64,000 nucleotides of DNA from Minisyncoccota bacterium. Its GTDB lineage: Bacteria > Patescibacteriota > Minisyncoccia > Phycocordibacterales > UBA5272. The notes beneath the pieces are model-generated. The model saw only the letters and a list, made by a program, of their open reading frames with translations. It was not told the origin of the DNA and ran no database searches. The position numbers were made by a program, and so were the translations under genes. Positions 3,459-60,050 of this stretch are shown one piece after another; positions within the stretch are counted from its first letter, which is position 1; each line of letters opens with the position of its first letter. The stretch lies in NCBI GenBank assembly GCA_031972295.1, contig DALYEZ010000002.1, positions 9,596 to 73,595 of the forward strand. Direction: 5' to 3'.

Positions 3459-4205
3459 TTGCATATGTCGTATTTTGTATATATTCTTGAATGCGCCGAC
3501 ACATCTTTATATGTAGGCTCTACAAACGATTTGCAGAAAAGATTGAAAGAGCACAATGGCTCCAAAAATGGTGCGCATTACACAAAAATACGAAGACCTG
3601 TCGTTTTGCGTTATAGTGAAGAGCTTACAACATACGGAGAATCTCGAAGTCGCGAGGCAGAAATAAAAAGAATGAAACGAAAAGAAAAACTAGATTTAAT
3701 AAATACAAAAGGTGTTGGAAAAAATGATGCCTTTACGCACCCCGTTGTTCTTTTGCTCGACAATGTTCGCAGTGTGCAAAACGTCGCTTCACTTTTCCGC
3801 ATTGCTGATTGTGTTGGGGTACAGAAAATTATTTTAGGTGGGATTACTCCAGGTCCCCTTGATCGCTTCAATCGGCCACGAAAAGATTTTGCTAAGATTT
3901 CTCTCGGGGCAGAAAAAAGTGTTGGGTGGGAATCGGTAGAAAATATACCAACGATAATTAGAAAGTATAAAAAAGAGGGATATGCTGTTGTTGCACTTGA
4001 GCAGTCAGAAAAATCTATTCCGTATACAAAATATAAAATCACGCAGCCAACACTAGTTGTGGTTGGCACGGAAGTAGAAGGTGTTTCAAAAGAAGTTTTG
4101 AAGCTGTGCGAGTCACATCTTGAGATTCCGATGGTAGGGAAGAAGGAGTCGCTTAATGTTGCTGTCGCAACAAGTGTTCTTTTGTTTCAGTTGCGAGATA
4201 ATTAA
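3459..4205 (+). CDS. fusion protein: N-terminal GIY-YIG nuclease-like domain + C-terminal SpoU/TrmH (SPOUT) RNA 2'-O-methyltransferase domain
   Basis: The N-terminus YFVYILECADTSLYVGSTNDLQKRLKEHN...HYTKIRRPVVLRY matches the GIY-YIG (UPF0213/YhbQ-like) pattern. The C-terminus LLDNVRSVQNVASLFRIADCVG ... VVVGTEVEGVS ... EIPMVGKKESLNVAVATSVLLFQL carries the three SPOUT motifs. Confidence 0.6.
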   Translation: MHMSYFVYILECADTSLYVGSTNDLQKRLKEHNGSKNGAHYTKIRRPVVLRYSEELTTYGESRSREAEIKRMKRKEKLDLINTKGVGKNDAFTHPVVLLLDNVRSVQNVASLFRIADCVGVQKIILGGITPGPLDRFNRPRKDFAKISLGAEKSVGWESVENIPTIIRKYKKEGYAVVALEQSEKSIPYTKYKITQPTLVVVGTEVEGVSKEVLKLCESHLEIPMVGKKESLNVAVATSVLLFQLRDN

Positions 4206-12276: not shown

Positions 12277-12349
12277 CCTCCGATAGTTCAATGGATAGAA
12301 CGAGAGCCTTCTAAGCTCTTAATGCAGGTTCGATTCCTGCTCGGAGGAC
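12277..12349 (+). tRNA. tRNA-Arg (anticodon UCU)
   Basis: CCTCCGA-TA-GTTCAATGGATAGAAC-G-AGAGC-CTTCTAA-GCTCT-TAAT-GCAGGTTCGATTCCTGC-TCGGAGG-A. The D-arm is shared with the other Arg tRNA. Ends may be off by 1 nt. Confidence 0.8.
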
Positions 12350-12764
12350 ACGTTTAAGAACCATGGCTGATTATTAAACGTGTCCTCCGAAGGAAAGCCT
12401 TTGAGGGCTTTCCGTGCAGGAATCGAAAAGGTTCTCCCATATTTTTAAGAAGTTCTACTTCGAAAAAATGGGAAACCTGTACCGTTCCCGTAGGGAAAGA
12501 TTCCTTGAGATATCCTCTTTACTTTTTTACTAGTTGGACGTATTCTTTTATTGGAGCTGAACGTCTCTCACCGCTGAAATCTACTGCTAAAGCGGGATGA
12601 TAAAAGAGACTAGAGGGAGTGCTTAGGCATAGCCCAGACCAACAGCTAAGGTACTTGAATCATGGTACCGAAGCTTCGGGTAGTTCCCCAGTAGTATCTC
12701 GCTACGTAGAACGTGCGAAGGGGAGATGTATAGGTTGAAAACTACGGTAGGCTCCCTTTATTTT

Positions 12765-12800
12765 GTCCCGTTGGCCATGTGCCGACGGGATTTATTTTTT
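12765..12800 (+). terminator. rho-independent terminator closing the long non-coding region after tRNA-Arg(UCU)
   Basis: CCCGTTGGCCATGTGCCGACGGG hairpin + ATTTATTTTTT. Confidence 0.6.
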
Positions 12801-16900: not shown

Positions 16901-17258
16901 CAAAAGCCTTTAAAAATCTCCGACTACTCGGAGATTTTAGCTTTTGTGCAGCGGAGCGCGACTGGCGCGAGCTGGGTGAGAAATGTGTCGAAACACATTT
17001 CGCAAGACCTTTTCAGGTTGCAGCGAGTGAACAACGAAGCGAAATCGAAAAGGTGTACAGATTCTGTAAGAATCGAGGAAATTTTCGGAGCGACGGCGAG
17101 AAAATATCTGTGACCAAATGTTAAGAAAACCCTTTTAGGTCGCGAGCATTTTCAGCAGAAAATGACTTGTGACCAAAACGTAAACAATTCCCGCTTTTAG
17201 GCTTTTGTGTTAGCATACAAAAACGAATAAAGAAGGGTTTAGCCTTTGTATTCAGGAT

Positions 17259-17331
17259 GGTGTCTATGGTGTAACGGTTAACACAGAGGCTTGTGGAGCC
17301 TTTAATTCGGGTTCGATTCCCGATAGACACC
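17259..17331 (+). tRNA. tRNA-His (anticodon GUG) with encoded G-1
   Basis: G-GTGTCTA...anticodon loop TTGTGGA...GGGTTCGATTCCCGATAGACAC-C. G-1 opposite C73 is diagnostic of His. Confidence 0.85.
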
Positions 17332-17528
17332 CAAAAATGAACGAAGTGATTTTTTTGGCGTGTCTAAACAAACAAATAGTTTTGTTTGTGTTTAGGAATT
17401 GAAAAGTCTGAATATATCGCACGGAACGTAGTGAGTACGATTTGAAGACTATACTGTTCCTGTAAGGAAAGATTCCCGATAGACACCCAAGTTAGTTTTC
17501 TGCTTCAAAAAATGTTTTACTGCTACTA

Positions 17529-18362
17529 GTGAAGAAATTCTTATGGCATTATAAACGAGCAAAGCGCGACGGATACGGACTACTTTTTTTGTGGCGAGCA
17601 TTTTTGCATTTCACACACATCTCCTCTTTCATTATTTTTGAGCGCAAAGGTGTAAAACTGTATTGCCACAACGATCCGTTTTCTTTTTGGCTATGGAATC
17701 ACAAAGATGAACTTCGTGAGGACGAACTTTTTTTTGAACGGTTTCTGCGGGAAGGGGATACAGTGATTGATGCTGGAGCAAACATTGGGCTACTTACGCT
17801 TCGTGCGGCAAAAATAGTTGGAGTGCGAGGTAAGGTAATCTCGATAGAGCCTCACCCAGAAACATTTCGTTGGCTTAAGAAAAACACACTTTTGAACCGA
17901 TTTTTAAACATACAATTTTTTAATATTGCCGTCGGACATAAACAACAACTTGTTTCATTTACTGATTTTAAAATTAAAGACATAAACAAAATATCAGAAA
18001 AAGAGGGAACACTTAAACTCCCATTAACGACTCTAGACACGTTGTGTAGTGATGTGTCACGCTGCATGCTTCTTAAAATTGACGTAGAGGGATTTGAATT
18101 ACCAGCACTCTTTGGCGCCGAGGAACTTCTTAAAAAAACTGATGTTGTTATGTTTGAAAGTTCGCCGCGGAATTTCGCTCTTCAGAATTATTCTCTGCAA
18201 GACATTTTTAGGTATCTGGAATTGCAAGGCTTTTCCGTGTTCAAAATACGTCCTGATTTCACAACAGAACACACGGCATCAAACTATGAGACCGTTGTAA
18301 AATATGAAAATCTCTTTGCTACCAAAGATCTAGTTTTTTTAGAAAAAAGACTTAATGGGTAA
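17529..18362 (+). CDS. FkbM-family methyltransferase
   Basis: GDTVIDAGANIGLLTL ... SIEPHPETF ... LLKIDVEGFELPALFGA matches the FkbM (TIGR01444) pattern. Confidence 0.65.
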   Translation: MKKFLWHYKRAKRDGYGLLFLWRAFLHFTHISSFIIFERKGVKLYCHNDPFSFWLWNHKDELREDELFFERFLREGDTVIDAGANIGLLTLRAAKIVGVRGKVISIEPHPETFRWLKKNTLLNRFLNIQFFNIAVGHKQQLVSFTDFKIKDINKISEKEGTLKLPLTTLDTLCSDVSRCMLLKIDVEGFELPALFGAEELLKKTDVVMFESSPRNFALQNYSLQDIFRYLELQGFSVFKIRPDFTTEHTASNYETVVKYENLFATKDLVFLEKRLNG

Positions 18363-52330: not shown

Positions 52331-55300
52331 ATGTCATATCATCAATCGTATAGAACCATTCAGGCAATGTTTCCGTTGAGGGTAGTGGTTTTAGTAGTAA
52401 TCTTTTCTCTAACTTTCTCACCACTCACTCCTCTTTTAGCCCAAGAGGTTTCAGATTCTACTAGTATCTCTGTAGGAGAAACAAGTTCACAAGTACCCCT
52501 TCCTGTTGATACCGAAATGGCCACGTCTCACGAGTCCCTGCAGGCTATTCTCCCAGAAATTAATCCAGATATAGAGCAAACTACAGATTCTGAAGTAGTT
52601 GTTGATGAATTATCTAAAGACGGTACTGAAAAAGAAACCACCTTGCAACCTTCTGCTGGTAATTCTGCGACTGCCTCACTTGCTTCGAATAGTGACTCAG
52701 GAAAAGTAATTAGGCCTAACATTGACCAATCGACAGGGGCTCTTATTTATGACTATCCAATGGAAACTCCAAATGGATTTAACCAGCAAAATCCGAATTT
52801 AAAACTCACATATAATTCTCAGGATGTAAAAAATGATTCAGTATTTGGTTACGGATGGAATGTTTCAATTCCATATATTGAAAGAGTTAATAAACATGGG
52901 GTCAATGACTTTTATTCTGGAGACGGTATTGATTTTGCTTCATCTGTGTTTGGTGAATTAGTTCAAAAAACCACTACAACATATGTGCCAAAATCAGCAT
53001 CTGATATTGTTTTGATTTCTTTTGTAAATAATGTGTGGACATACATAGATAAAGAGGGTACTACATACGTGTATGGATTAACTTCTGCTGGACGTCAGGA
53101 TGACCCCTCCAACTCAGCACATATCTACAAGTGGATGCTTACTTCAGTAACTGATTCGAATGGAAACAGTATTAGCTATACGTACACTAAGGATCAAGGA
53201 CAAATTTACCCTGACACAGTTAATTATGGGGGGATATATCAGATTGCTTTTGTAAAGGTTGTACGTGGAGAAACCATTGAATCGTATAAGCCAGGCTTTT
53301 TAGTTGCAACTACAGAGATAATTAATGAAATACAGTTAAAGGTCTCTGGAGTATTGAAAAAAAAATATGCTTTTACATATACGCAGGGAGACAATGCGAG
53401 TCGATCAATTTTAAACTCAGCGCAAATCTCCGTATATGATTCTTCAAATAATTTAGCAGTGCAGCCCACTACAACCTTTAGTTACTCAATTCGTTCGACA
53501 CCAAACTGGAACACCTCATCCAATATCACGTTTCCTCCAGGTACGAATCTCCTCAATGGGCATTCCATAGCAGTTGATTTTAATGGTGATGGATATACTG
53601 ATATTCTTACTTCTTTCGCAGATCCGAATTCAATTACCACTCAGGTAGCATATATAAATAATGGTGATGGAACATGGGCAACATCAACCGCATATACACC
53701 ACCGGTAATTTTTTATTACGACAGCGGGGCTGGTTTGAGTAAAGGCTACACTACACTTGATCTTAATGGAGATCAGCTCCCAGAGCTTTTTAGGTCGGTG
53801 ATGGAATGTAATGGTGTGGTTTGTGGGAATAGTTCAGTTATTTATATCAACACAGGAAGTGGTTGGGTATCAAGTACAGATACTATCCCAGTAGGTCTTC
53901 TTTATCTTGGGAGCCCAATAGCAGACATGGCTGATTTTAATGGTGACGGTTTAGTAGATATTTATTCTTCGGCAAGAAATTTCAATGGAAATAATTTTCC
54001 TAGAAAAGTATATCTTAATAATGGTGATGGTACCTGGCTTGATGACACCGCAGCGTGGACATTTCCTTACAGTTCAGGTTCAAGGTCTATCTATACCGAT
54101 CTTAATGGGGATGGGATAAGTGATATTATCTTTGATAATTGGTATTACACAGGGGGTGCTTGTAATTGCACAACATATAACCCAAATAATAGGGCATATA
54201 TTGGAGATGGTAAGGGGGCATATGTGGCCTCAATAAGCTATATCTCACCATACTCATATAGTTCATATCCAGCGGGTCAACCGAGTCCTGGCTATGACTG
54301 GGGTAACAGAGTATTTGATATAAATAATGATGGACTTGTCGATCTTGTGTATGGAACTAACCCTTCAGGAGTTGGAACTGTAAGAAGTTCTACTTATGTT
54401 AATACAAGTAATATTTGGTCCTTAGATATCCCATCGTTGGTATTACCGTCATCTATTTTGAAATTTAGTGATAACGGAAATTTTACAATTGGAAATCCAT
54501 TAGATATGGACGCTGATGGCATTCAGGAAATTTATTATCAAACAACTATTTTTAAAAACCAGAGCGCAAAGCATACCGATCTTCTTTCTACTATTACTAT
54601 GCCAAGTGGAGGTACGGTGGCTATTGCATATCAATCAAGTGGTAAATATAAAGATTTAAATGGAAACCTTTTGAACGCACAACTTCCATTTGCTGTGCAA
54701 ACAGTGCGGTCAATAACAACTACAGATCCAGTCGCTAGTGTTGTAGGCACTTCAAGCTACACCTATTCGGGCGGTGTATATTACTATGCCACGCCTTCTG
54801 ATCGAAAGTTTGCTGGTTTTGAAAAAGTATCAGAATCTAGACCAGACGGAAGTGTTGTCGTAAACTACTATCATCAAGGCAACGGAACAAATAACAGTAA
54901 TTATGAATACAATGATAGTGTGGGAAAAATTGGTTATGTATATCGCACCGATATTGTAAATAGTTCTGGAACTATCCAAGCTCGATCAACGACTAAGTAT
55001 AATTCAATCAATACAGTAACGGGGGCATATTATGTATATCCGACTCAAACAGTTGATGAAATGAACGGAAAGAATACTGCTACCGCGTACATCTATGACA
55101 CAACAACAGGGAATCTTTCGAGTAGTCTTGAATATGGAAAGGTTGTGGTGACCGACCCACTTACTTTCACCGATGCTGGTTTGGATATTAAGTCGACTGA
55201 GTATACTTATGCCACAGATGCATCGTCAACAACTTACAAAGTTTCTAGTAAAGCAACATATGATCAGGTGGGTACCAAGGTAAACGAGACTAAATATTAT

Positions 55301-58300
55301 TACGATATGTTAGCGTTTGGTTCATTGGCGGTCGGCAATAATACCAAAGTCTCACAACTGAAGACGGGAAGTACGTTTATTGATAGTGTCCAAAAAACGT
55401 ACAACAGTTATGGGCACATTACCTCAAGTACTGATGCTCGAAATAAAACAACGCAATTGGGATATGATACAAACAATTTGTATATCGCAACCGTTACTAA
55501 TCCTTTATTGCAAGTGATGAGGTATGTATATGAGTACAATACAGGTAAACCGACGGAGGTTATTGATCAAAATGGATTCACATACCGAACTTCATACGAT
55601 GGTCTTGGGAGAGTTCTGAGTGAAACAATACCTGACGCGTATGGCACGAGTGTTACAAAAACCCTCTATACGTACACAGACATTCCAAATGCGGTATCCG
55701 TACAAAAAACAGATTATCTCAATGATCATAATGGAGTCGAAACATATCAGTATTTCGATGGCCTTAATCGGCTTGTGCAAGAAAGAAAAGAGGCTGAAGT
55801 GGCAGGGACGTTTAATGTTCGGGATATAAGATATAACAATATTGCTTTAGTGGAAAGTGAATCATTGCCGTATGTTGCCACAGGGGCAGGAAAAACAAGT
55901 CCAACAAAAAATGCAGCACTCTACACTACGAACACATATGATCCATTGCAACGAGTTACTGCTATTACAAATAGTATTGGTGTTACGAGTAATATTTATA
56001 ATGATTGGAAGACCACCGTCACAGATCCGAATGGCAAAGTAAAAAAGTATTATAAAGATGCTTACAATAATTTGGTAAAAGTTGATGAAGTAAATGGTAG
56101 TGCAACTTATTCGACAAATTACACTTGGAATCTAAATAATAAACTCACAAATATCACTGATGCACTTGGAAATGTTCGTAACTTCACATACGACGGACTC
56201 GGACAACGTCTGACTGCCGAAGATTTGCACAATCCCGCGGACACATCTTTTGGTACTTGGACGTACGTTTATGATCTAGCGGGTAATCTTACTCAAACAC
56301 ATAATCCAGAAAATAAAATCGTACATTATACATACGATGATATTAATCGCGTAAAAACAGAAAATTATATTAATGAGACAGGAATAGAAATAGCATACGA
56401 TTACGATACGTGTCCTAATGGAGTAGGAAAACTTTGTACCGTGACACAATCAACATCAAAAGTTGTGTTTGAATATACCCCATCGGGATTAGTAAGTAAG
56501 GAAAACAGAGAAATTCATAAATCTCTTTTCTCAACCTCATTCTTGTATGACAGACAGGGAAACGTTGTACAGAGCGTGAGTCCGGATCAGGATACATTCT
56601 ATCGTAACTATAACAACGCAGGACTTCTTGAAAAAATACAATATGGTCAAGCGGGAATGAAGTCAATGATGCGTACCATTGTTGATGATTTAGATTACTC
56701 ACCGGTAGGTCAAATTACTTACCAGAAAAACGGTAATAGTACAGAGACTGTGAATACCTATGATTCTAGTAAGTTGTATCGTCTTACAAACAAAATTACT
56801 ACAACTTTGAATAACTCTCCAAGTGGACATAAAAGAGTAAACGCACTGGTAGTAGGAGGTGGTGGTGGTGTAAGTGGTGGCACTGGCGGTGGCGGTGCAG
56901 GTGGATATCAAGCAAGTACTACCTTAGCAGTACTTGCTCAAGCTTATCCTATTACAGTAGGGGCAGGCGGATCTGGATTTAATAATGGTGGGAACTCGAT
57001 CTTCAGCACTCTTACTGCCTTAGGTGGCGGGGCAGCTTCCGACGGCTTCAGTTCTGGTCAAAATGGAGGTTCTGGTGGCGGTGGTTACGGACAGTTTGTT
57101 CCGCAAGGTAATGGTGGTGCTGGAAATGTAGGGCAAGGAAATAGTGGTGGAAATGGATTTGGTATGGGGAGCGCAACTACAGCAGGAGGCGGTGGCGGTG
57201 CATCAACTGCAGGAACTAATGCTTCTTCAGGACAAGGAGGAAATGGGGGAAATGGTGTAGTTAATTCTATTTCAGGATCTTCTGTTGTTTATGCAGGAGG
57301 TGGGGCAGGCAGGGCTATCATAGGTATAAACGGAATTCCTGGAACAGGTGGTGGAGGAGCTGTTGGAAGTAACGGTATAGACGGATTGGGAGGCGGTGGC
57401 GGTGGACAAGTCGCAGGAGTTGATACTAAGGGTGGATCTGGTGTTGTTATTATTGCATACCGTACAGATGGAAGTGATGGGGTACTAAATACTTCTACAG
57501 GAGGTGTAAAGACAACGTCTGGTGCGTACACTATACATACCTTTACAGGTAATGGAATTTTTACAGTAAATCCTCCATCAAATGGCAGTGCTCGTATCCA
57601 AGATATCAGTTACACCTACGACAATAATGGCAACATTACACAGATAGTAGACGCTTCAGATACAGCAGGAGCGAAAACGGTTACGTACACATATGATGAC
57701 CTTAATAGAATGCTTTCAGCTACGGCTACTAATGTTGCTTCTGGACAAAGTGGATATACGTACAACTACACGTATGATGCGATTGGAAATATCACAAATG
57801 GCCCTGTGGGAGCGTATGTTTACAACGGTATAAGTGCCTCTAATTGGGCAAATCCTCATGCTGCAACTTCAATTGCTGGAACTATTCTTACGTATGATAA
57901 AAGTGGCAACATGCTTTCTGATGAGGTGCTTACAAATACGTGGAACTACAAGCAGCAACTTGTGCAAGTAGAGAAAGATAAAAATACTTTTGAGTACACC
58001 TATGATCATGAAGGAAATCGTCTGCGAGTAATGAGTGATGGAGAAGATACATATTATCCAAATAAGTTCTACAGCGTTGACGTATCTGATAAAAGAACAA
58101 AAAATGTTTTTGCGGGCGACCAACTAGTTGCAACTATTGAAACGAGCACTTCGGCTAATAACATATTTTATAACCACACCGACCACCTTGGTTCTGTGAA
58201 TGTGGTGACTGATGCATCTGGTACTCAAACAAATCTTCTCGACTACTTCCCATACGGATCAAAAAGAATTGAAAGTGGTACTAACGTTGGGGAGAGAGAA

Positions 58301-59083
58301 TTCATCGGACAAATATTTGATGATGAAAGTGGTTTAAGTTATCTGAATGCACGGTATTACGATGGGAATCGAGGACGGTTTATTAGTCAGGATCCATTGC
58401 ATTGGGACATGTCCCAGGAGTATCTCGTAGATCCGCAGCAGATGAATAGTTACAGCTATGGAAGAGGTAATCCACTCAAATATATTGACCCTAATGGAAA
58501 GAAAGTAGAGTTAGTTGTTCGTCCCGTATTCACAAAATATGATGGGCATCTTTTCTACCATATTACCCCTGAGAATCCCGATCAAATTAATGTAAATGGA
58601 GTTCCTGCTGGAACTAAAGAATTTAGTATAGGGGGTTACAATAGGGGGGGATTTCTTGGTATTGGCAATAAATTAACACCTGAGATTGGTTACGAGGGAG
58701 GACAAGCTTCAAACACAGATCTACCTTATCTTCTTGGTCAGAAAGAAGCAACAGCAAGAATTACCATCATGTCTCCAGAAGGGCAATCTGATACTGATTT
58801 TATAAATGCTTTAGGCACATCTGCGAATAATGTTAATAAAGAAAGCTATTTCACTTTCGGTCAAAGATTAAAATTTGGAAACGCAAATTCTAACAATTTT
58901 GCTCATGAAATTGGGTCTCAGGTTGGAGTGGGGGATCAAGTTACAGAATTTAGCAGTCTTATGACAAATAAAATTTATATTCCAGGTGGTGATAGAGGTT
59001 TACCGACAAACTCATTGCGTCAGATGATTAGACAAGGAATTGACCAAACAGGTAAGCAAATCAGTAAATTGTTCAAAAACTAA
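52331..59083 (+). CDS. giant secreted polymorphic toxin: SpvB-like domain + FG-GAP/VCBS-type repeats + RHS/YD repeats + RHS repeat-associated core + variable C-terminal domain
   Basis: Signal peptide. SpvB block NPNLKLTYNSQDVKNDSVFGYGWNVSIPYIERV...DFYSGDGIDFASSVFGELV. Six DxNGDG-type repeats (DFNGDGYTDIL, DLNGDQLPELF, DFNGDGLVDIY, DLNGDGISDII, DINNDGLVDLV, DMDADGIQEIY). More than 15 YD repeats (YTYDxxGN). RHS core ...NARYYDGNRGRFISQDPL...DPNGK, followed by an approximately 195-aa non-repetitive C-terminus. Confidence 0.85.
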   Translation: MSYHQSYRTIQAMFPLRVVVLVVIFSLTFSPLTPLLAQEVSDSTSISVGETSSQVPLPVDTEMATSHESLQAILPEINPDIEQTTDSEVVVDELSKDGTEKETTLQPSAGNSATASLASNSDSGKVIRPNIDQSTGALIYDYPMETPNGFNQQNPNLKLTYNSQDVKNDSVFGYGWNVSIPYIERVNKHGVNDFYSGDGIDFASSVFGELVQKTTTTYVPKSASDIVLISFVNNVWTYIDKEGTTYVYGLTSAGRQDDPSNSAHIYKWMLTSVTDSNGNSISYTYTKDQGQIYPDTVNYGGIYQIAFVKVVRGETIESYKPGFLVATTEIINEIQLKVSGVLKKKYAFTYTQGDNASRSILNSAQISVYDSSNNLAVQPTTTFSYSIRSTPNWNTSSNITFPPGTNLLNGHSIAVDFNGDGYTDILTSFADPNSITTQVAYINNGDGTWATSTAYTPPVIFYYDSGAGLSKGYTTLDLNGDQLPELFRSVMECNGVVCGNSSVIYINTGSGWVSSTDTIPVGLLYLGSPIADMADFNGDGLVDIYSSARNFNGNNFPRKVYLNNGDGTWLDDTAAWTFPYSSGSRSIYTDLNGDGISDIIFDNWYYTGGACNCTTYNPNNRAYIGDGKGAYVASISYISPYSYSSYPAGQPSPGYDWGNRVFDINNDGLVDLVYGTNPSGVGTVRSSTYVNTSNIWSLDIPSLVLPSSILKFSDNGNFTIGNPLDMDADGIQEIYYQTTIFKNQSAKHTDLLSTITMPSGGTVAIAYQSSGKYKDLNGNLLNAQLPFAVQTVRSITTTDPVASVVGTSSYTYSGGVYYYATPSDRKFAGFEKVSESRPDGSVVVNYYHQGNGTNNSNYEYNDSVGKIGYVYRTDIVNSSGTIQARSTTKYNSINTVTGAYYVYPTQTVDEMNGKNTATAYIYDTTTGNLSSSLEYGKVVVTDPLTFTDAGLDIKSTEYTYATDASSTTYKVSSKATYDQVGTKVNETKYYYDMLAFGSLAVGNNTKVSQLKTGSTFIDSVQKTYNSYGHITSSTDARNKTTQLGYDTNNLYIATVTNPLLQVMRYVYEYNTGKPTEVIDQNGFTYRTSYDGLGRVLSETIPDAYGTSVTKTLYTYTDIPNAVSVQKTDYLNDHNGVETYQYFDGLNRLVQERKEAEVAGTFNVRDIRYNNIALVESESLPYVATGAGKTSPTKNAALYTTNTYDPLQRVTAITNSIGVTSNIYNDWKTTVTDPNGKVKKYYKDAYNNLVKVDEVNGSATYSTNYTWNLNNKLTNITDALGNVRNFTYDGLGQRLTAEDLHNPADTSFGTWTYVYDLAGNLTQTHNPENKIVHYTYDDINRVKTENYINETGIEIAYDYDTCPNGVGKLCTVTQSTSKVVFEYTPSGLVSKENREIHKSLFSTSFLYDRQGNVVQSVSPDQDTFYRNYNNAGLLEKIQYGQAGMKSMMRTIVDDLDYSPVGQITYQKNGNSTETVNTYDSSKLYRLTNKITTTLNNSPSGHKRVNALVVGGGGGVSGGTGGGGAGGYQASTTLAVLAQAYPITVGAGGSGFNNGGNSIFSTLTALGGGAASDGFSSGQNGGSGGGGYGQFVPQGNGGAGNVGQGNSGGNGFGMGSATTAGGGGGASTAGTNASSGQGGNGGNGVVNSISGSSVVYAGGGAGRAIIGINGIPGTGGGGAVGSNGIDGLGGGGGGQVAGVDTKGGSGVVIIAYRTDGSDGVLNTSTGGVKTTSGAYTIHTFTGNGIFTVNPPSNGSARIQDISYTYDNNGNITQIVDASDTAGAKTVTYTYDDLNRMLSATATNVASGQSGYTYNYTYDAIGNITNGPVGAYVYNGISASNWANPHAATSIAGTILTYDKSGNMLSDEVLTNTWNYKQQLVQVEKDKNTFEYTYDHEGNRLRVMSDGEDTYYPNKFYSVDVSDKRTKNVFAGDQLVATIETSTSANNIFYNHTDHLGSVNVVTDASGTQTNLLDYFPYGSKRIESGTNVGEREFIGQIFDDESGLSYLNARYYDGNRGRFISQDPLHWDMSQEYLVDPQQMNSYSYGRGNPLKYIDPNGKKVELVVRPVFTKYDGHLFYHITPENPDQINVNGVPAGTKEFSIGGYNRGGFLGIGNKLTPEIGYEGGQASNTDLPYLLGQKEATARITIMSPEGQSDTDFINALGTSANNVNKESYFTFGQRLKFGNANSNNFAHEIGSQVGVGDQVTEFSSLMTNKIYIPGGDRGLPTNSLRQMIRQGIDQTGKQISKLFKN

Positions 59084-59382: not shown

Positions 59383-59594
59383 AGTCGGCGCTTTTCTTGA
59401 GTTAAAAACAAGCGGGATCTTTCTCTTTGGAATTAGTTACAAGAAAATTTCTTTCAGAAAATAAGGAATCTCGCCCTACTGGCGCTGTACACCTTTTCTA
59501 TTTTCTCAAAGCAGAGCTTCTCTAAAATAAAGAAAAGGTTTTTCGATTCCCCCACGAAAATGCTCCCAGCATTTTCTCACTCCACAAAAATACA

Positions 59595-59625
59595 AAAAAC
59601 TCTCATCGCGAGAGTTTTTTGTATT
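59595..59625 (-). terminator. terminator for tmRNA (hairpin AAAAAACTCTCATCGCGAGAGTTTTTT)
   Basis: Read on the minus strand: hairpin then U-run immediately 3' of the tmRNA end. Confidence 0.6.
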
Positions 59626-59629
59626 TTTG

Positions 59630-60050
59630 TGGAGATGGGGGGAATCGAACCCCCGTGCATAGAAATCTAGGATGTGTAGGTCTACAATGCGTAGCGGCAT
59701 TCTTGCCTTCTCGAAGGAAGGCTAACAATGAGACGTGGTGAACGACGCAAGAATCGTCTCATCGGTCACTGCGTATTTAAATCTGAAAGTGCAGTGAGGC
59801 TTTCAGATCGAGTGTACGATGTATAATCGTTACCTTTCTACGATACACGAGCGTATAAAGGAACGCTTGGCAGAAGTCTGCAGAGCAGAGTCTTACGCAA
59901 GAGCAAAAGCACGAGCCTCACTTGCGTAAGGTGATGCGATTGCTGTGTAGCTTTTAGCTGCACTACTTTTTTGTATACTGAGTACGAGGAAATATACTTC
60001 TCGGCACTGCGTACACACAAGATAAACCATGTCGATGCCAGGTCATCCCC
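59630..60050 (-). ncRNA. ssrA: tmRNA (SsrA), standard one-piece
   Basis: The minus-strand 5' end GGGGATGACCTGGCATCGACATGG matches the tmRNA consensus GGGGnUGAnnnnGGnUUCGACnnGG. The 3' end ACGGGGGTTCGATTCCCCCCATCTCC-A is a tRNA-like T arm + acceptor with the G3:U pair. It sits immediately downstream of smpB on the same strand. Putative tag frame ends ...EARAFALA-TAA. Confidence 0.8.

Follow-up and report, generated by a model that had tools for sequence, protein, structure and literature searches.

A structured module matched to tRNA 3' ends recurs behind tRNA and tmRNA genes in Paceibacteria

The duplicated tRNA-His end and its spacer

The window analyzed here is a 64,000-nt stretch of a Minisyncoccota bacterium genome (GenBank assembly GCA_031972295.1, contig DALYEZ010000002.1, positions 9,596 to 73,595 of the forward strand), and our subject is the DNA directly behind its tRNA-His gene, where the 3' end of the tRNA is repeated beyond a short spacer. 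With eight tRNAs, a tmRNA and the beginning of a 16S gene, the window is a bacterial chromosome segment, and Pfam identifies its genes as housekeeping: uppS, an rluD-like gene, rplS followed by tRNA-Leu, tRNA-His followed by an FkbM methyltransferase gene, a PdaC-like gene, uppP and others. Its relatives place it among the Paceibacteria. The initial annotation of this DNA had reported the duplication of the tRNA-His end, and we can confirm it: the 20-mer GATTCCCGATAGACACCCAA at 17315-17334 recurs at 17471-17490 with 20 of 20 nucleotides identical, so that GATTCCCGATAGACACCCA(A) is exact at both places. These are the only two matches in the 64 kb at three mismatches or fewer, where shuffled sequences lead one to expect 0.01. 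The two copies start 156 nt apart, and the 136 nt between them (17335-17470) contain no long open reading frame (ORF).

Copy 1 is made up of the last four T-loop nucleotides (GATT), the T-stem 3' strand (CCCGA), the acceptor 3' strand (TAGACAC), C73 and the trailer nucleotides CAA; CCA is not encoded in the gene. Folding revealed this tRNA end once more within the spacer, in inverted orientation and interrupted by a hairpin; we call its two parts A5 (TTGGcGTGTCTA, 17355-17366) and B5 (TTAGGAATT, 17392-17400). Part of the spacer together with copy 2 thus forms a structured module of about 137 nt at 17355-17491. The features of the locus, all on the forward strand, are as follows.

17260-17332, with the encoded G-1 at 17259: tRNA-His(GTG), called by ARAGORN; Rfam tRNA score 64.2 bits
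17315-17334: repeat copy 1, the 3' end inside tRNA-His plus the start of the trailer
17335-17354: trailer, forming the loop of a long hairpin in which A5 pairs with the tRNA acceptor 3' strand and trailer
17355-17366: A5, complement of TAGACAC-CCAA (acceptor 3' strand, discriminator, trailer)
17368-17389: hairpin 1 (hp1), with a 9-bp stem and a 4-nt loop
17392-17400: B5, a partly decayed complement of GATTCCCGA (TCGGGAATC in relatives)
17401-17470: module interior, consisting of the junction GAAAAG, hairpin 2 (hp2, 17407-17448), the junction CTATACTG, hairpin 3 (hp3, 17457-17469) and an A
17471-17490: repeat copy 2, the 3' closing strand, consisting of B3 (17471-17479), A3 (17480-17486), C and CAA

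A5 pairs over 11 bp with one bulge, while B5 is the complement of the T-stem 3' strand and four T-loop nucleotides, its window version pairing with GATTCC. Copy 2 pairs back onto A5 and B5 as the continuous 3' strand of two stacked helices, A and B, just as one 3' strand runs through the T-stem and acceptor of a tRNA. Here and in every other member of the family described below, hp1 is placed exactly at the acceptor/T-stem junction of the complement. At the position equivalent to 17335-17354, many relatives carry an intrinsic terminator, hp0. The initial annotation had taken the spacer to encode nothing, which proved wrong: the module is a covarying structure containing a complement of the repeat, and its length stays within 134-143 nt throughout the family.

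The window module is itself slightly decayed, with A5 matching at 7 of 8 positions and B5 at 8 of 9, as might be expected of a chance match or a neutral local duplication. The initial annotation had allowed for the latter should the spacer be unique; the spacer recurs, however, and the duplication is non-random and linked to tRNAs. The expectation of 0.01, the recurrence of the architecture in many genomes at five kinds of gene and the covariation rule out this explanation and leave it a negligible probability.

Three further candidates were rejected. Copy 2 is not the end of a decayed second tRNA-His gene: no similarity extends upstream of it beyond the repeat, and neither ARAGORN nor the Rfam tRNA model (RF00005) matches the modules. 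A known RNA family was not found either, as Rfam returned nothing at gathering or permissive thresholds for this region or for the best-preserved modules, only tRNA, tmRNA and rRNA families reaching threshold. Finally, a small ORF like tpr of Escherichia coli was considered in the spacer, where a 21-codon ATG frame starts at 17338 but is missing conservation among the related loci.

Related modules tailored to the genes they follow

Related loci, about 25 in all and numbered here with an L, were collected by scanning public genomes and metagenomes for the 19-mer and by following rplS homologs. A covariance model built from the module alignment was then run over 266 kb that included the window and related loci, and all of its strong matches lie directly 3' of tRNA-like genes. 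Within the window these are, besides tRNA-His, the tRNA-Arg(TCT) and tmRNA genes, and a weaker match lies behind tRNA-Leu.

12379-12519, forward strand: tRNA-Arg(TCT) module, 113.8 bits; the tRNA-Arg(TCT) gene is at 12277-12349
12382-12390, forward strand: A5 of the Arg module, GTCCTCCGA
12392-12413, forward strand: hairpin 1 of the Arg module
12416-12424, forward strand: B5 of the Arg module, GCAGGAATC
12431-12476 and 12485-12497, forward strand: hairpins 2 and 3 of the Arg module
12499-12505, forward strand: remnant copy 2 of the Arg module, GATTCCT
16967-17095, forward strand: tentative decayed module in the tRNA-Leu trailer (…AATCGAAAAGGTGTACAGATTCTGTAAGAATCGAGG…), 21.9 bits, E about 0.004-0.02
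59450-59589, reverse strand: tmRNA module, 87.3 bits; the tmRNA gene is at 59629-60050, reverse strand
59586-59628, reverse strand: hp0 terminator of the tmRNA module
59580-59585, reverse strand: A5 of the tmRNA module, GTGGAG
59556-59576, reverse strand: hairpin 1 of the tmRNA module
59545-59553, reverse strand: B5 of the tmRNA module, GGGGGAATC
59492-59538 and 59472-59484, reverse strand: hairpins 2 and 3 of the tmRNA module
59460-59470, reverse strand: remnant copy 2 of the tmRNA module

The pairing strands of each module are matched to the gene in front of it. Together GTCCTCCGA and GCAGGAATC are the complement of the tRNA-Arg end, and GGGGGAATC matches the T-arm of tmRNA. Further modules follow tRNA-Ser(TGA) in L038 and L018 and tRNA-Val(TAC) in L029, and L003 has one of Arg type. 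Across the family B5 tracks the T-loop, giving GAUU:AAUC for His and Arg, GAAU:AUUC for Ser, AAAU:AUUU for Val and CCCCC:GGGGG for tmRNA. A complement of the cognate 3' end was present in 13 of 82 cognate trailers, against 9 of 1228 non-cognate tests. Preserved modules also close with a direct copy of the cognate tRNA end (G-ATCTCACCTCCTC in the L038 Ser module, GATTCCTGCTC in the L003 Arg module, about 15 of 18 nt in the L029 Val module), and the direct repeat is therefore a property of the family. These modules are a lineage-specific family in Paceibacteria, serving tRNA-His, tRNA-Arg(TCT), tRNA-Ser(TGA), tRNA-Val(TAC) and tmRNA, and possibly tRNA-Leu as well.

Independent minimum free energy folding of nine module instances gave the same architecture each time, with z-scores of -4 to -8. 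Covariation was assessed on an alignment of 11 module sequences, with 500 shuffles and slid structures as controls. RNAalifold recovered hp1 and stem B from this alignment; hp1, which occurs in five sequence versions, each fully paired, is 99% paired overall and shows double compensatory changes at 7 of its 9 pairs. For the full structure (A, hp1, B and hp3), 85.7% of cells are paired compared with 73.4% in shuffles, none of the 500 reaching the observed value, and 33-50% in slid controls. Double changes affect 17 pairs (9.6 in shuffles). The structure scores 0.411 for covariation, compared with 0.189 for shuffles and at most 0.173 for slid controls. The interior covaries at the outer stem of hp2 and at hp3, as in the compensatory changes GTCT/AGAC to GGTT/AACC and CCT/AGG to CCC/GGG relative to L029, and its junction nucleotides G-AAA, GUAC and A are invariant. 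Stem A formed with copy 2 is the weakest helix, being 67% paired. Five tRNA-like partners with re-matched stems amount to a natural covariation experiment, which makes a role of the pairing in processing, decoy activity, regulation or mobility testable.

Which copy of the tRNA end A5 and B5 pair with is less uniform. Copy 1, the real gene end, is matched by A5 at 7-8 of 8 positions and by B5 at 9 of 9 in nearly all instances; the match of A5 to the acceptor part of copy 2 falls to 1-3 of 8 in L003, L029 and the window Arg module. The inverted repeat with copy 1 continues into the locus-specific trailer and encloses the terminator; its total stem of 10-27 bp measures 10-14 bp for tRNA-His, 14 bp for Ser, 19 bp for Arg and 27 bp for tmRNA. 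A5 complements the trailer as encoded in the genome (CCCAC, CCCAA, ACAC…) instead of the mature CCA end. In modeled folds A5 and B5 can therefore take either of two registers, with the upstream or with the downstream copy.

The tRNA-sense strand folds at lower energy in 11 of 13 modules and has 36 G.U pairs against 23, and the covariance model scores 87-127 bits on this strand and at most 20 bits on the antisense strand. This evidence modestly favors an RNA made from the tRNA strand. Alternatively, the direct, inverted and direct copies could be a signal at the DNA level, forming hairpins or cruciforms with a part in termination, replication or recombination, or they could be a by-product of fold-back (snap-back) repair near highly transcribed tRNA genes. 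Such an origin would fit the perfect palindromes that run from the acceptor through the unconstrained trailer and terminator at tmRNA and tRNA-Arg, the match of A5 to the genomic trailer and the nearly equal folding of both strands. However, it does not sit well with the bias of G.U pairs and folding energy toward one strand, with conserved unpaired junction nucleotides and covarying hairpins of a kind typical of folded RNAs, or with the position of hp1 at a structurally meaningful junction in every member, and we regard it as improbable.

Taken with the anatomy, covariation, cognate-gene matching, tandem and absent states and structural parallel to RttR that we observe, the reading we prefer, with a probability of about 0.5, is that the module is a structured trailer element matched to the tRNA end and resembling the RttR units of Escherichia coli (compared below), that copy 2 is its 3' strand and that recombination between the repeats alters how many copies are present. 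It probably acts as RNA. With either copy of the tRNA end, A5-hp1-B5 would form a coaxial helix like that of the acceptor and T-stem, with a continuous 3' strand, and so mimic a tRNA minihelix. The module RNA would be produced on the tRNA-sense strand by read-through from the tRNA promoter, and its tRNA-like helix may be handled by RNase P and RNase Z. Several observations weigh against this proposal. The acceptor part of copy 2 is decayed in L003, L029, L014 and the window Arg and tmRNA modules while A5 is still perfect against the real tRNA end; the closed tRNA-like fold is therefore not kept in all members, and the true partner of A5 may be copy 1, or A5 may work at the DNA level. In many relatives the tRNA and A5 are separated by an intrinsic terminator, often a bidirectional one, with no promoter identified, so the module would be transcribed by read-through only. 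Support from the strand comparison is modest (sign test, p about 0.01), and there are only about 13 distinct module sequences, many of them closely related. Lastly, the sporadic occurrence of modules whose stems are always matched is hard to explain by vertical descent and loss.

Two observations were made beside the Arg and tmRNA modules. Directly 3' of the Arg module, about 280 nt (12520-12800) contain no convincing ORF but show several GC-rich hairpin-like stretches and a closing terminator-like hairpin (…GTCCCGTTGGCCATGTGCCGACGGGATTTATTTTT); they have no Rfam match and may be another non-coding RNA. A giant ORF of 2250 aa (52331-59083, forward strand) converges on the tmRNA module. Elsewhere in the window, the ORF at 3459-4205 (forward strand) is an unusual fusion of an N-terminal GIY-YIG nuclease domain and a SpoU-type RNA methyltransferase domain.

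Gain, loss and origin of the modules

In the related loci, tRNA-His is followed by zero, one or two tandem modules. Comparing empty and occupied sites had been suggested in the initial annotation, and both kinds exist. L001, L028 and L036 have empty sites: about 60 nt past the tRNA gene they continue with DNA homologous to the sequence 3' of copy 2 in the window. The site is occupied in L018, L008 and L038/L039. Among loci with one module, copy 2 is perfect in L018 and decayed in L009 (4 mismatches), L003, L029 and L007 (the same as L014 and L016). Two tandem modules are found in L008, where a window-type module whose copy 2 carries 2 mismatches precedes a module of L007 type, and in L038/L039, where three perfect cores are spaced 150 and 165 nt apart in another genomic context with truB downstream. 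The boundaries of presence and absence fall exactly at the repeat, both between L028 and the window or L018 and between L007 and L008. Under the preferred reading, modules would come and go through recombination, unequal or intramolecular, between the 19-20-nt direct repeats: such recombination deletes modules precisely, which would explain the empty sites, and the tandem arrays fit unequal exchange.

Interiors are shared across genes and genomes, with identities of 92% between the window Arg and L009 His modules, 92% between the window tmRNA and L003 Arg modules and 88% between the L029 Val and L003 His modules. In the window and L003, which belong to closely related genomes, the Arg modules have interiors that are 72% identical though their A5-hp1-B5 parts are the same. 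By sequence comparison, then, module interiors appear to be exchanged among paralogs. Modules are scattered sporadically over tRNAs and genomes, the Arg module occurring only in the window and L003, the Ser module only in L018 and L038 and the Val module only in L029, and many copies are truncated or decayed (L002/L030, L029 Val, window Leu). At L003 5160-5200 (reverse strand), an Arg-type module lacks the tRNA-Arg body, leaving …TTGGCGG followed directly by ACACGTTTAA beside apparent coding sequence, and the breakpoint of this rearrangement is the tRNA-Arg 3' end.

These dynamics would also suit a family of miniature non-autonomous mobile DNAs, similar to miniature inverted-repeat transposable elements (MITEs) or cis-mobilizable elements (CIMEs), that insert at tRNA and tmRNA 3' ends through an enzyme encoded elsewhere. 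The direct repeat would then be a target duplication or crossover core, and A5-hp1-B5 would recognize the target, either as a duplex mimic made of single-stranded DNA or by guide-like pairing. Presence/absence polymorphism bounded exactly by the repeat, tandem accretion in L038/L039, L018 and L008, sporadic distribution, interior identities of 88-92% across genes and genomes and the many truncated or decayed copies all agree with such an element, as do the several dispersed copies in 64 kb (three strong modules and one weak) and the left edge of the repeat in the T-loop. The T-loop is reportedly the classical crossover position of tRNA-targeting integrases.

We searched for traces of such mobility. 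Pfam found no integrase, transposase or site-specific recombinase among 50 window ORFs, in agreement with the initial annotation, which had seen no integrase in the window; among the called genes of about 25 related loci there was no integrase or transposase. Scans of IMG/VR and blastn searches of GenBank phages and PLSDB plasmids returned neither the 19-mer core nor the module. Matches to the spacer motif (L011-L013, inside coding sequence) and to a degenerate module motif (L041-L049, with neither a model match nor a tRNA) in IMG/VR, and the metagenome match L010, were dismissed as chance. No copy away from tRNA-like genes was found in the 266 kb searched with the model or in the phage, plasmid and viral collections. 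Further, MITEs carry uniform terminal inverted repeats at varied sites, whereas here the pairing strands that form the ends differ with each tRNA, unlike repeats bound by a transposase, and all copies lie 3' of tRNA-like genes. No mechanism is known that would re-write an internal complement of about 19 nt for each new target, and the sequence from copy 1 to A5 is a variable, host-like trailer or terminator. The initial annotation had offered a miniature tRNA-targeting element as one of its suggestions; this comes close to one of the two readings still alive and survives only as the main rival to the trailer element, and we consider it unlikely.

The same annotation had proposed that the repeats are the attL/attR scar of an integrated element, which we formulate as an island of a tyrosine integrase in tRNA-His whose interior was later deleted. 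The perfect copy (20 of 20) of the tRNA 3' end, which runs from the T-loop to a few nucleotides past the gene, is as expected of classical att identity blocks, and the stretch from tRNA-His to FkbM is hypervariable, with different small cargo genes in relatives. A scar should, however, enclose foreign cargo or a random remnant, and the interior is instead conserved in sequence, length and base-pairing in at least eight genomes and contains the complement of the core. Nor would independent deletions be expected to produce identical junctions. The architecture also stands behind four other genes (Arg, Ser, Val and tmRNA) with re-matched strands, a pattern that the remnant of an island deletion would not produce. 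With no integrase in the window or relatives and no attP candidate in the viral, phage and plasmid collections, we disfavor this origin as very unlikely.

The tRNA-Leu/His region is a hypervariable spot within an otherwise syntenic core. Its tRNA-Leu-to-tRNA-His spacer (16902-17259 in the window) ranges in relatives from 42 nt (L002, L028, L030) to more than 1 kb and has received an epimerase gene in L018 and ORF109 in L029. Between tRNA-His and FkbM, L014 has HAD_2, L018 a UCP032817-like gene and a methyltransferase gene, L004 two ORFs, and L002, L003 and L029 membrane ORFs. The leader of the FkbM methyltransferase gene (17530-17640, TTCTTATGGCATTATAAACGAGC…TTTTTGTGGCGAGCATTTTTGCA) is conserved in L001, L002, L004, L014, L028, L030 and L036 regardless of the upstream DNA; we regard it as a candidate promoter or cis-regulatory element. 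Another dispersed repeat, unlike the modules and labeled direct-repeat family D7, occupies tRNA trailers and spacers (…GGAGCGCGAC(T)GGCGCGAGC… / …GGTCGCGAGCATTTTC-GCAGAAAAT-A-TGTGACCAAAAC…), with window sites at 16946-17200, about 2735-2775 (after tRNA-Lys) and 17585-17604 and sites in relatives at L003 about 1000-1075, L014 7670-7760 and L030 about 2760-2900. The locus is also a hot spot of assembly breaks: more than 12 independent metagenome contigs with rplS end in or just after tRNA-Leu, 100-250 nt past rplS (L015, L017, L019-L027, L031-L035), which is consistent with strain-level heterogeneity at tRNA-Leu/His. The modules and the neighboring variable region coincide with assembly breaks in many metagenomes.

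Comparison with known systems

Several known systems were compared with the modules, and three of them were rejected. A complement like a retroelement primer-binding site does not fit, since A5 matches the genomic trailer and not the CCA end. By inspection, the strand order 4-7-1 and the sequences misfit a hammerhead-like three-way junction, and there was no match to an Rfam ribozyme. Sensing in the manner of a T-box would need 19 nt of a folded tRNA, and the downstream genes differ between loci.

The att repeats of islands in tRNA and tmRNA genes are said to start in the T-loop and to form tandem arrays at one gene, with tmRNA also among the targets. The module repeats likewise start in the T-loop, occur in tandem at one gene and affect both tmRNA and tRNAs. 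Unlike islands, modules have no integrase, cargo or attP-bearing element, and the DNA between their repeats is a conserved fold with a complement of the core. Island-prediction tools should accordingly not score direct repeats of tRNA 3' ends in genomes of the Candidate Phyla Radiation (CPR) as integration scars.

Integron attC sites and the attP(+) site of CTX phage are recombination sites made of a folded single strand. In a similar way, the two inverted target-like copies of the module, about 80-100 nt apart, can fold into a target duplex, and the protruding hp1 could mark the strand. The modules differ in having no R/L box consensus and no cassette ORFs, and they show no association with IntI or a Xer-type enzyme; moreover, both of their inverted copies lie on one side of the supposed insertion.

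An acceptor/T-arm-like geometry is described for 5'-half-tRNA guides of tRNase Z (PMC9141469) and for the leader-trailer interaction of MALAT1 (PMC8457004). The mascRNA/MALAT1 and tRNase Z/RNase P guide complexes resemble the module in that its 5'-half-like A5-hp1-B5 and a 3' strand from the tRNA end form a coaxial helix. The module differs in having no T-loop, D arm or anticodon arm, and its 9-bp T-stem opens into a two-hairpin junction. We speculate, and consider it rather doubtful, that the modules represent a class of target-matched elements in which a scaffold of hp1, hp2 and hp3 carries two exchangeable guide-like segments that single out the 3' end of one tRNA or tmRNA. Such an element would either be mobile and find the ends of tRNA genes through base pairing (with folded single-stranded DNA or RNA guidance), or be an RNA, acting in trans or in cis, that binds the 3' half of the cognate tRNA into a pre-tRNA-like complex for RNase Z or RNase P. 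If true, the RNA-capture case would be a natural counterpart of the engineered 5'-half-tRNA guide systems, and the guide-like reading in general would provide a new programmable scaffold for recognizing RNA or DNA.

The closest parallel to the trailer element that we favor is found in E. coli K-12, whose tyrT-tyrV-rttR locus we checked directly (NC_000913.3, 1286000-1287600; L040). The last 19 nt of tRNA-Tyr, from inside the T-loop, recur three times after tyrV at an exact spacing of 178 nt and once between tyrT and tyrV, and the first of these units is the annotated small RNA RttR. Each 178-nt RttR/tyrT unit contains a 10-nt internal complement of the tRNA-Tyr end, GGGGAAGGAT, and in every unit the predicted fold pairs the tRNA-end copy with this internal complement (GGGGAAGGAU:AUCCUUCCCC), closing a three-hairpin junction. 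The annotation of RttR, and remarks on transcript processing and the stringent response, are taken from bioRxiv 10.1101/2024.07.17.603846, where its role is still described as unclear. In the literature searched we found no earlier description of the CPR modules.

In both systems the unit lies in the tRNA trailer and on the tRNA strand, its end repeats roughly the last 19 nt of the preceding tRNA, from the T-loop onward, and the tRNA-end copy with an internal complement closes a multi-hairpin junction; both also occur as tandem units, two in L038/L039 and L008 of Paceibacteria and three after tyrV in E. coli. They share neither sequence similarity nor similarity by Rfam model, so that the Paceibacteria modules are analogs and not homologs of RttR. 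The E. coli complement is continuous and covers the T-stem and part of the acceptor, whereas that of Paceibacteria covers the whole acceptor and the trailer, with a hairpin dividing it at the acceptor/T-stem junction. The Paceibacteria unit is shorter (137-166 nt against 178) and has no tpr-like ORF. Finally, in E. coli the arrangement serves one tRNA at one locus, while in Paceibacteria it is a dispersed family at no fewer than four tRNAs and tmRNA, with re-matched stems and shared interiors. For decades the E. coli tyrT repeats and RttR have stood as an isolated curiosity. An analogous multi-gene family in a distant, genome-reduced phylum suggests, by this structural analogy, that trailer elements matched to tRNA ends may be a general class.

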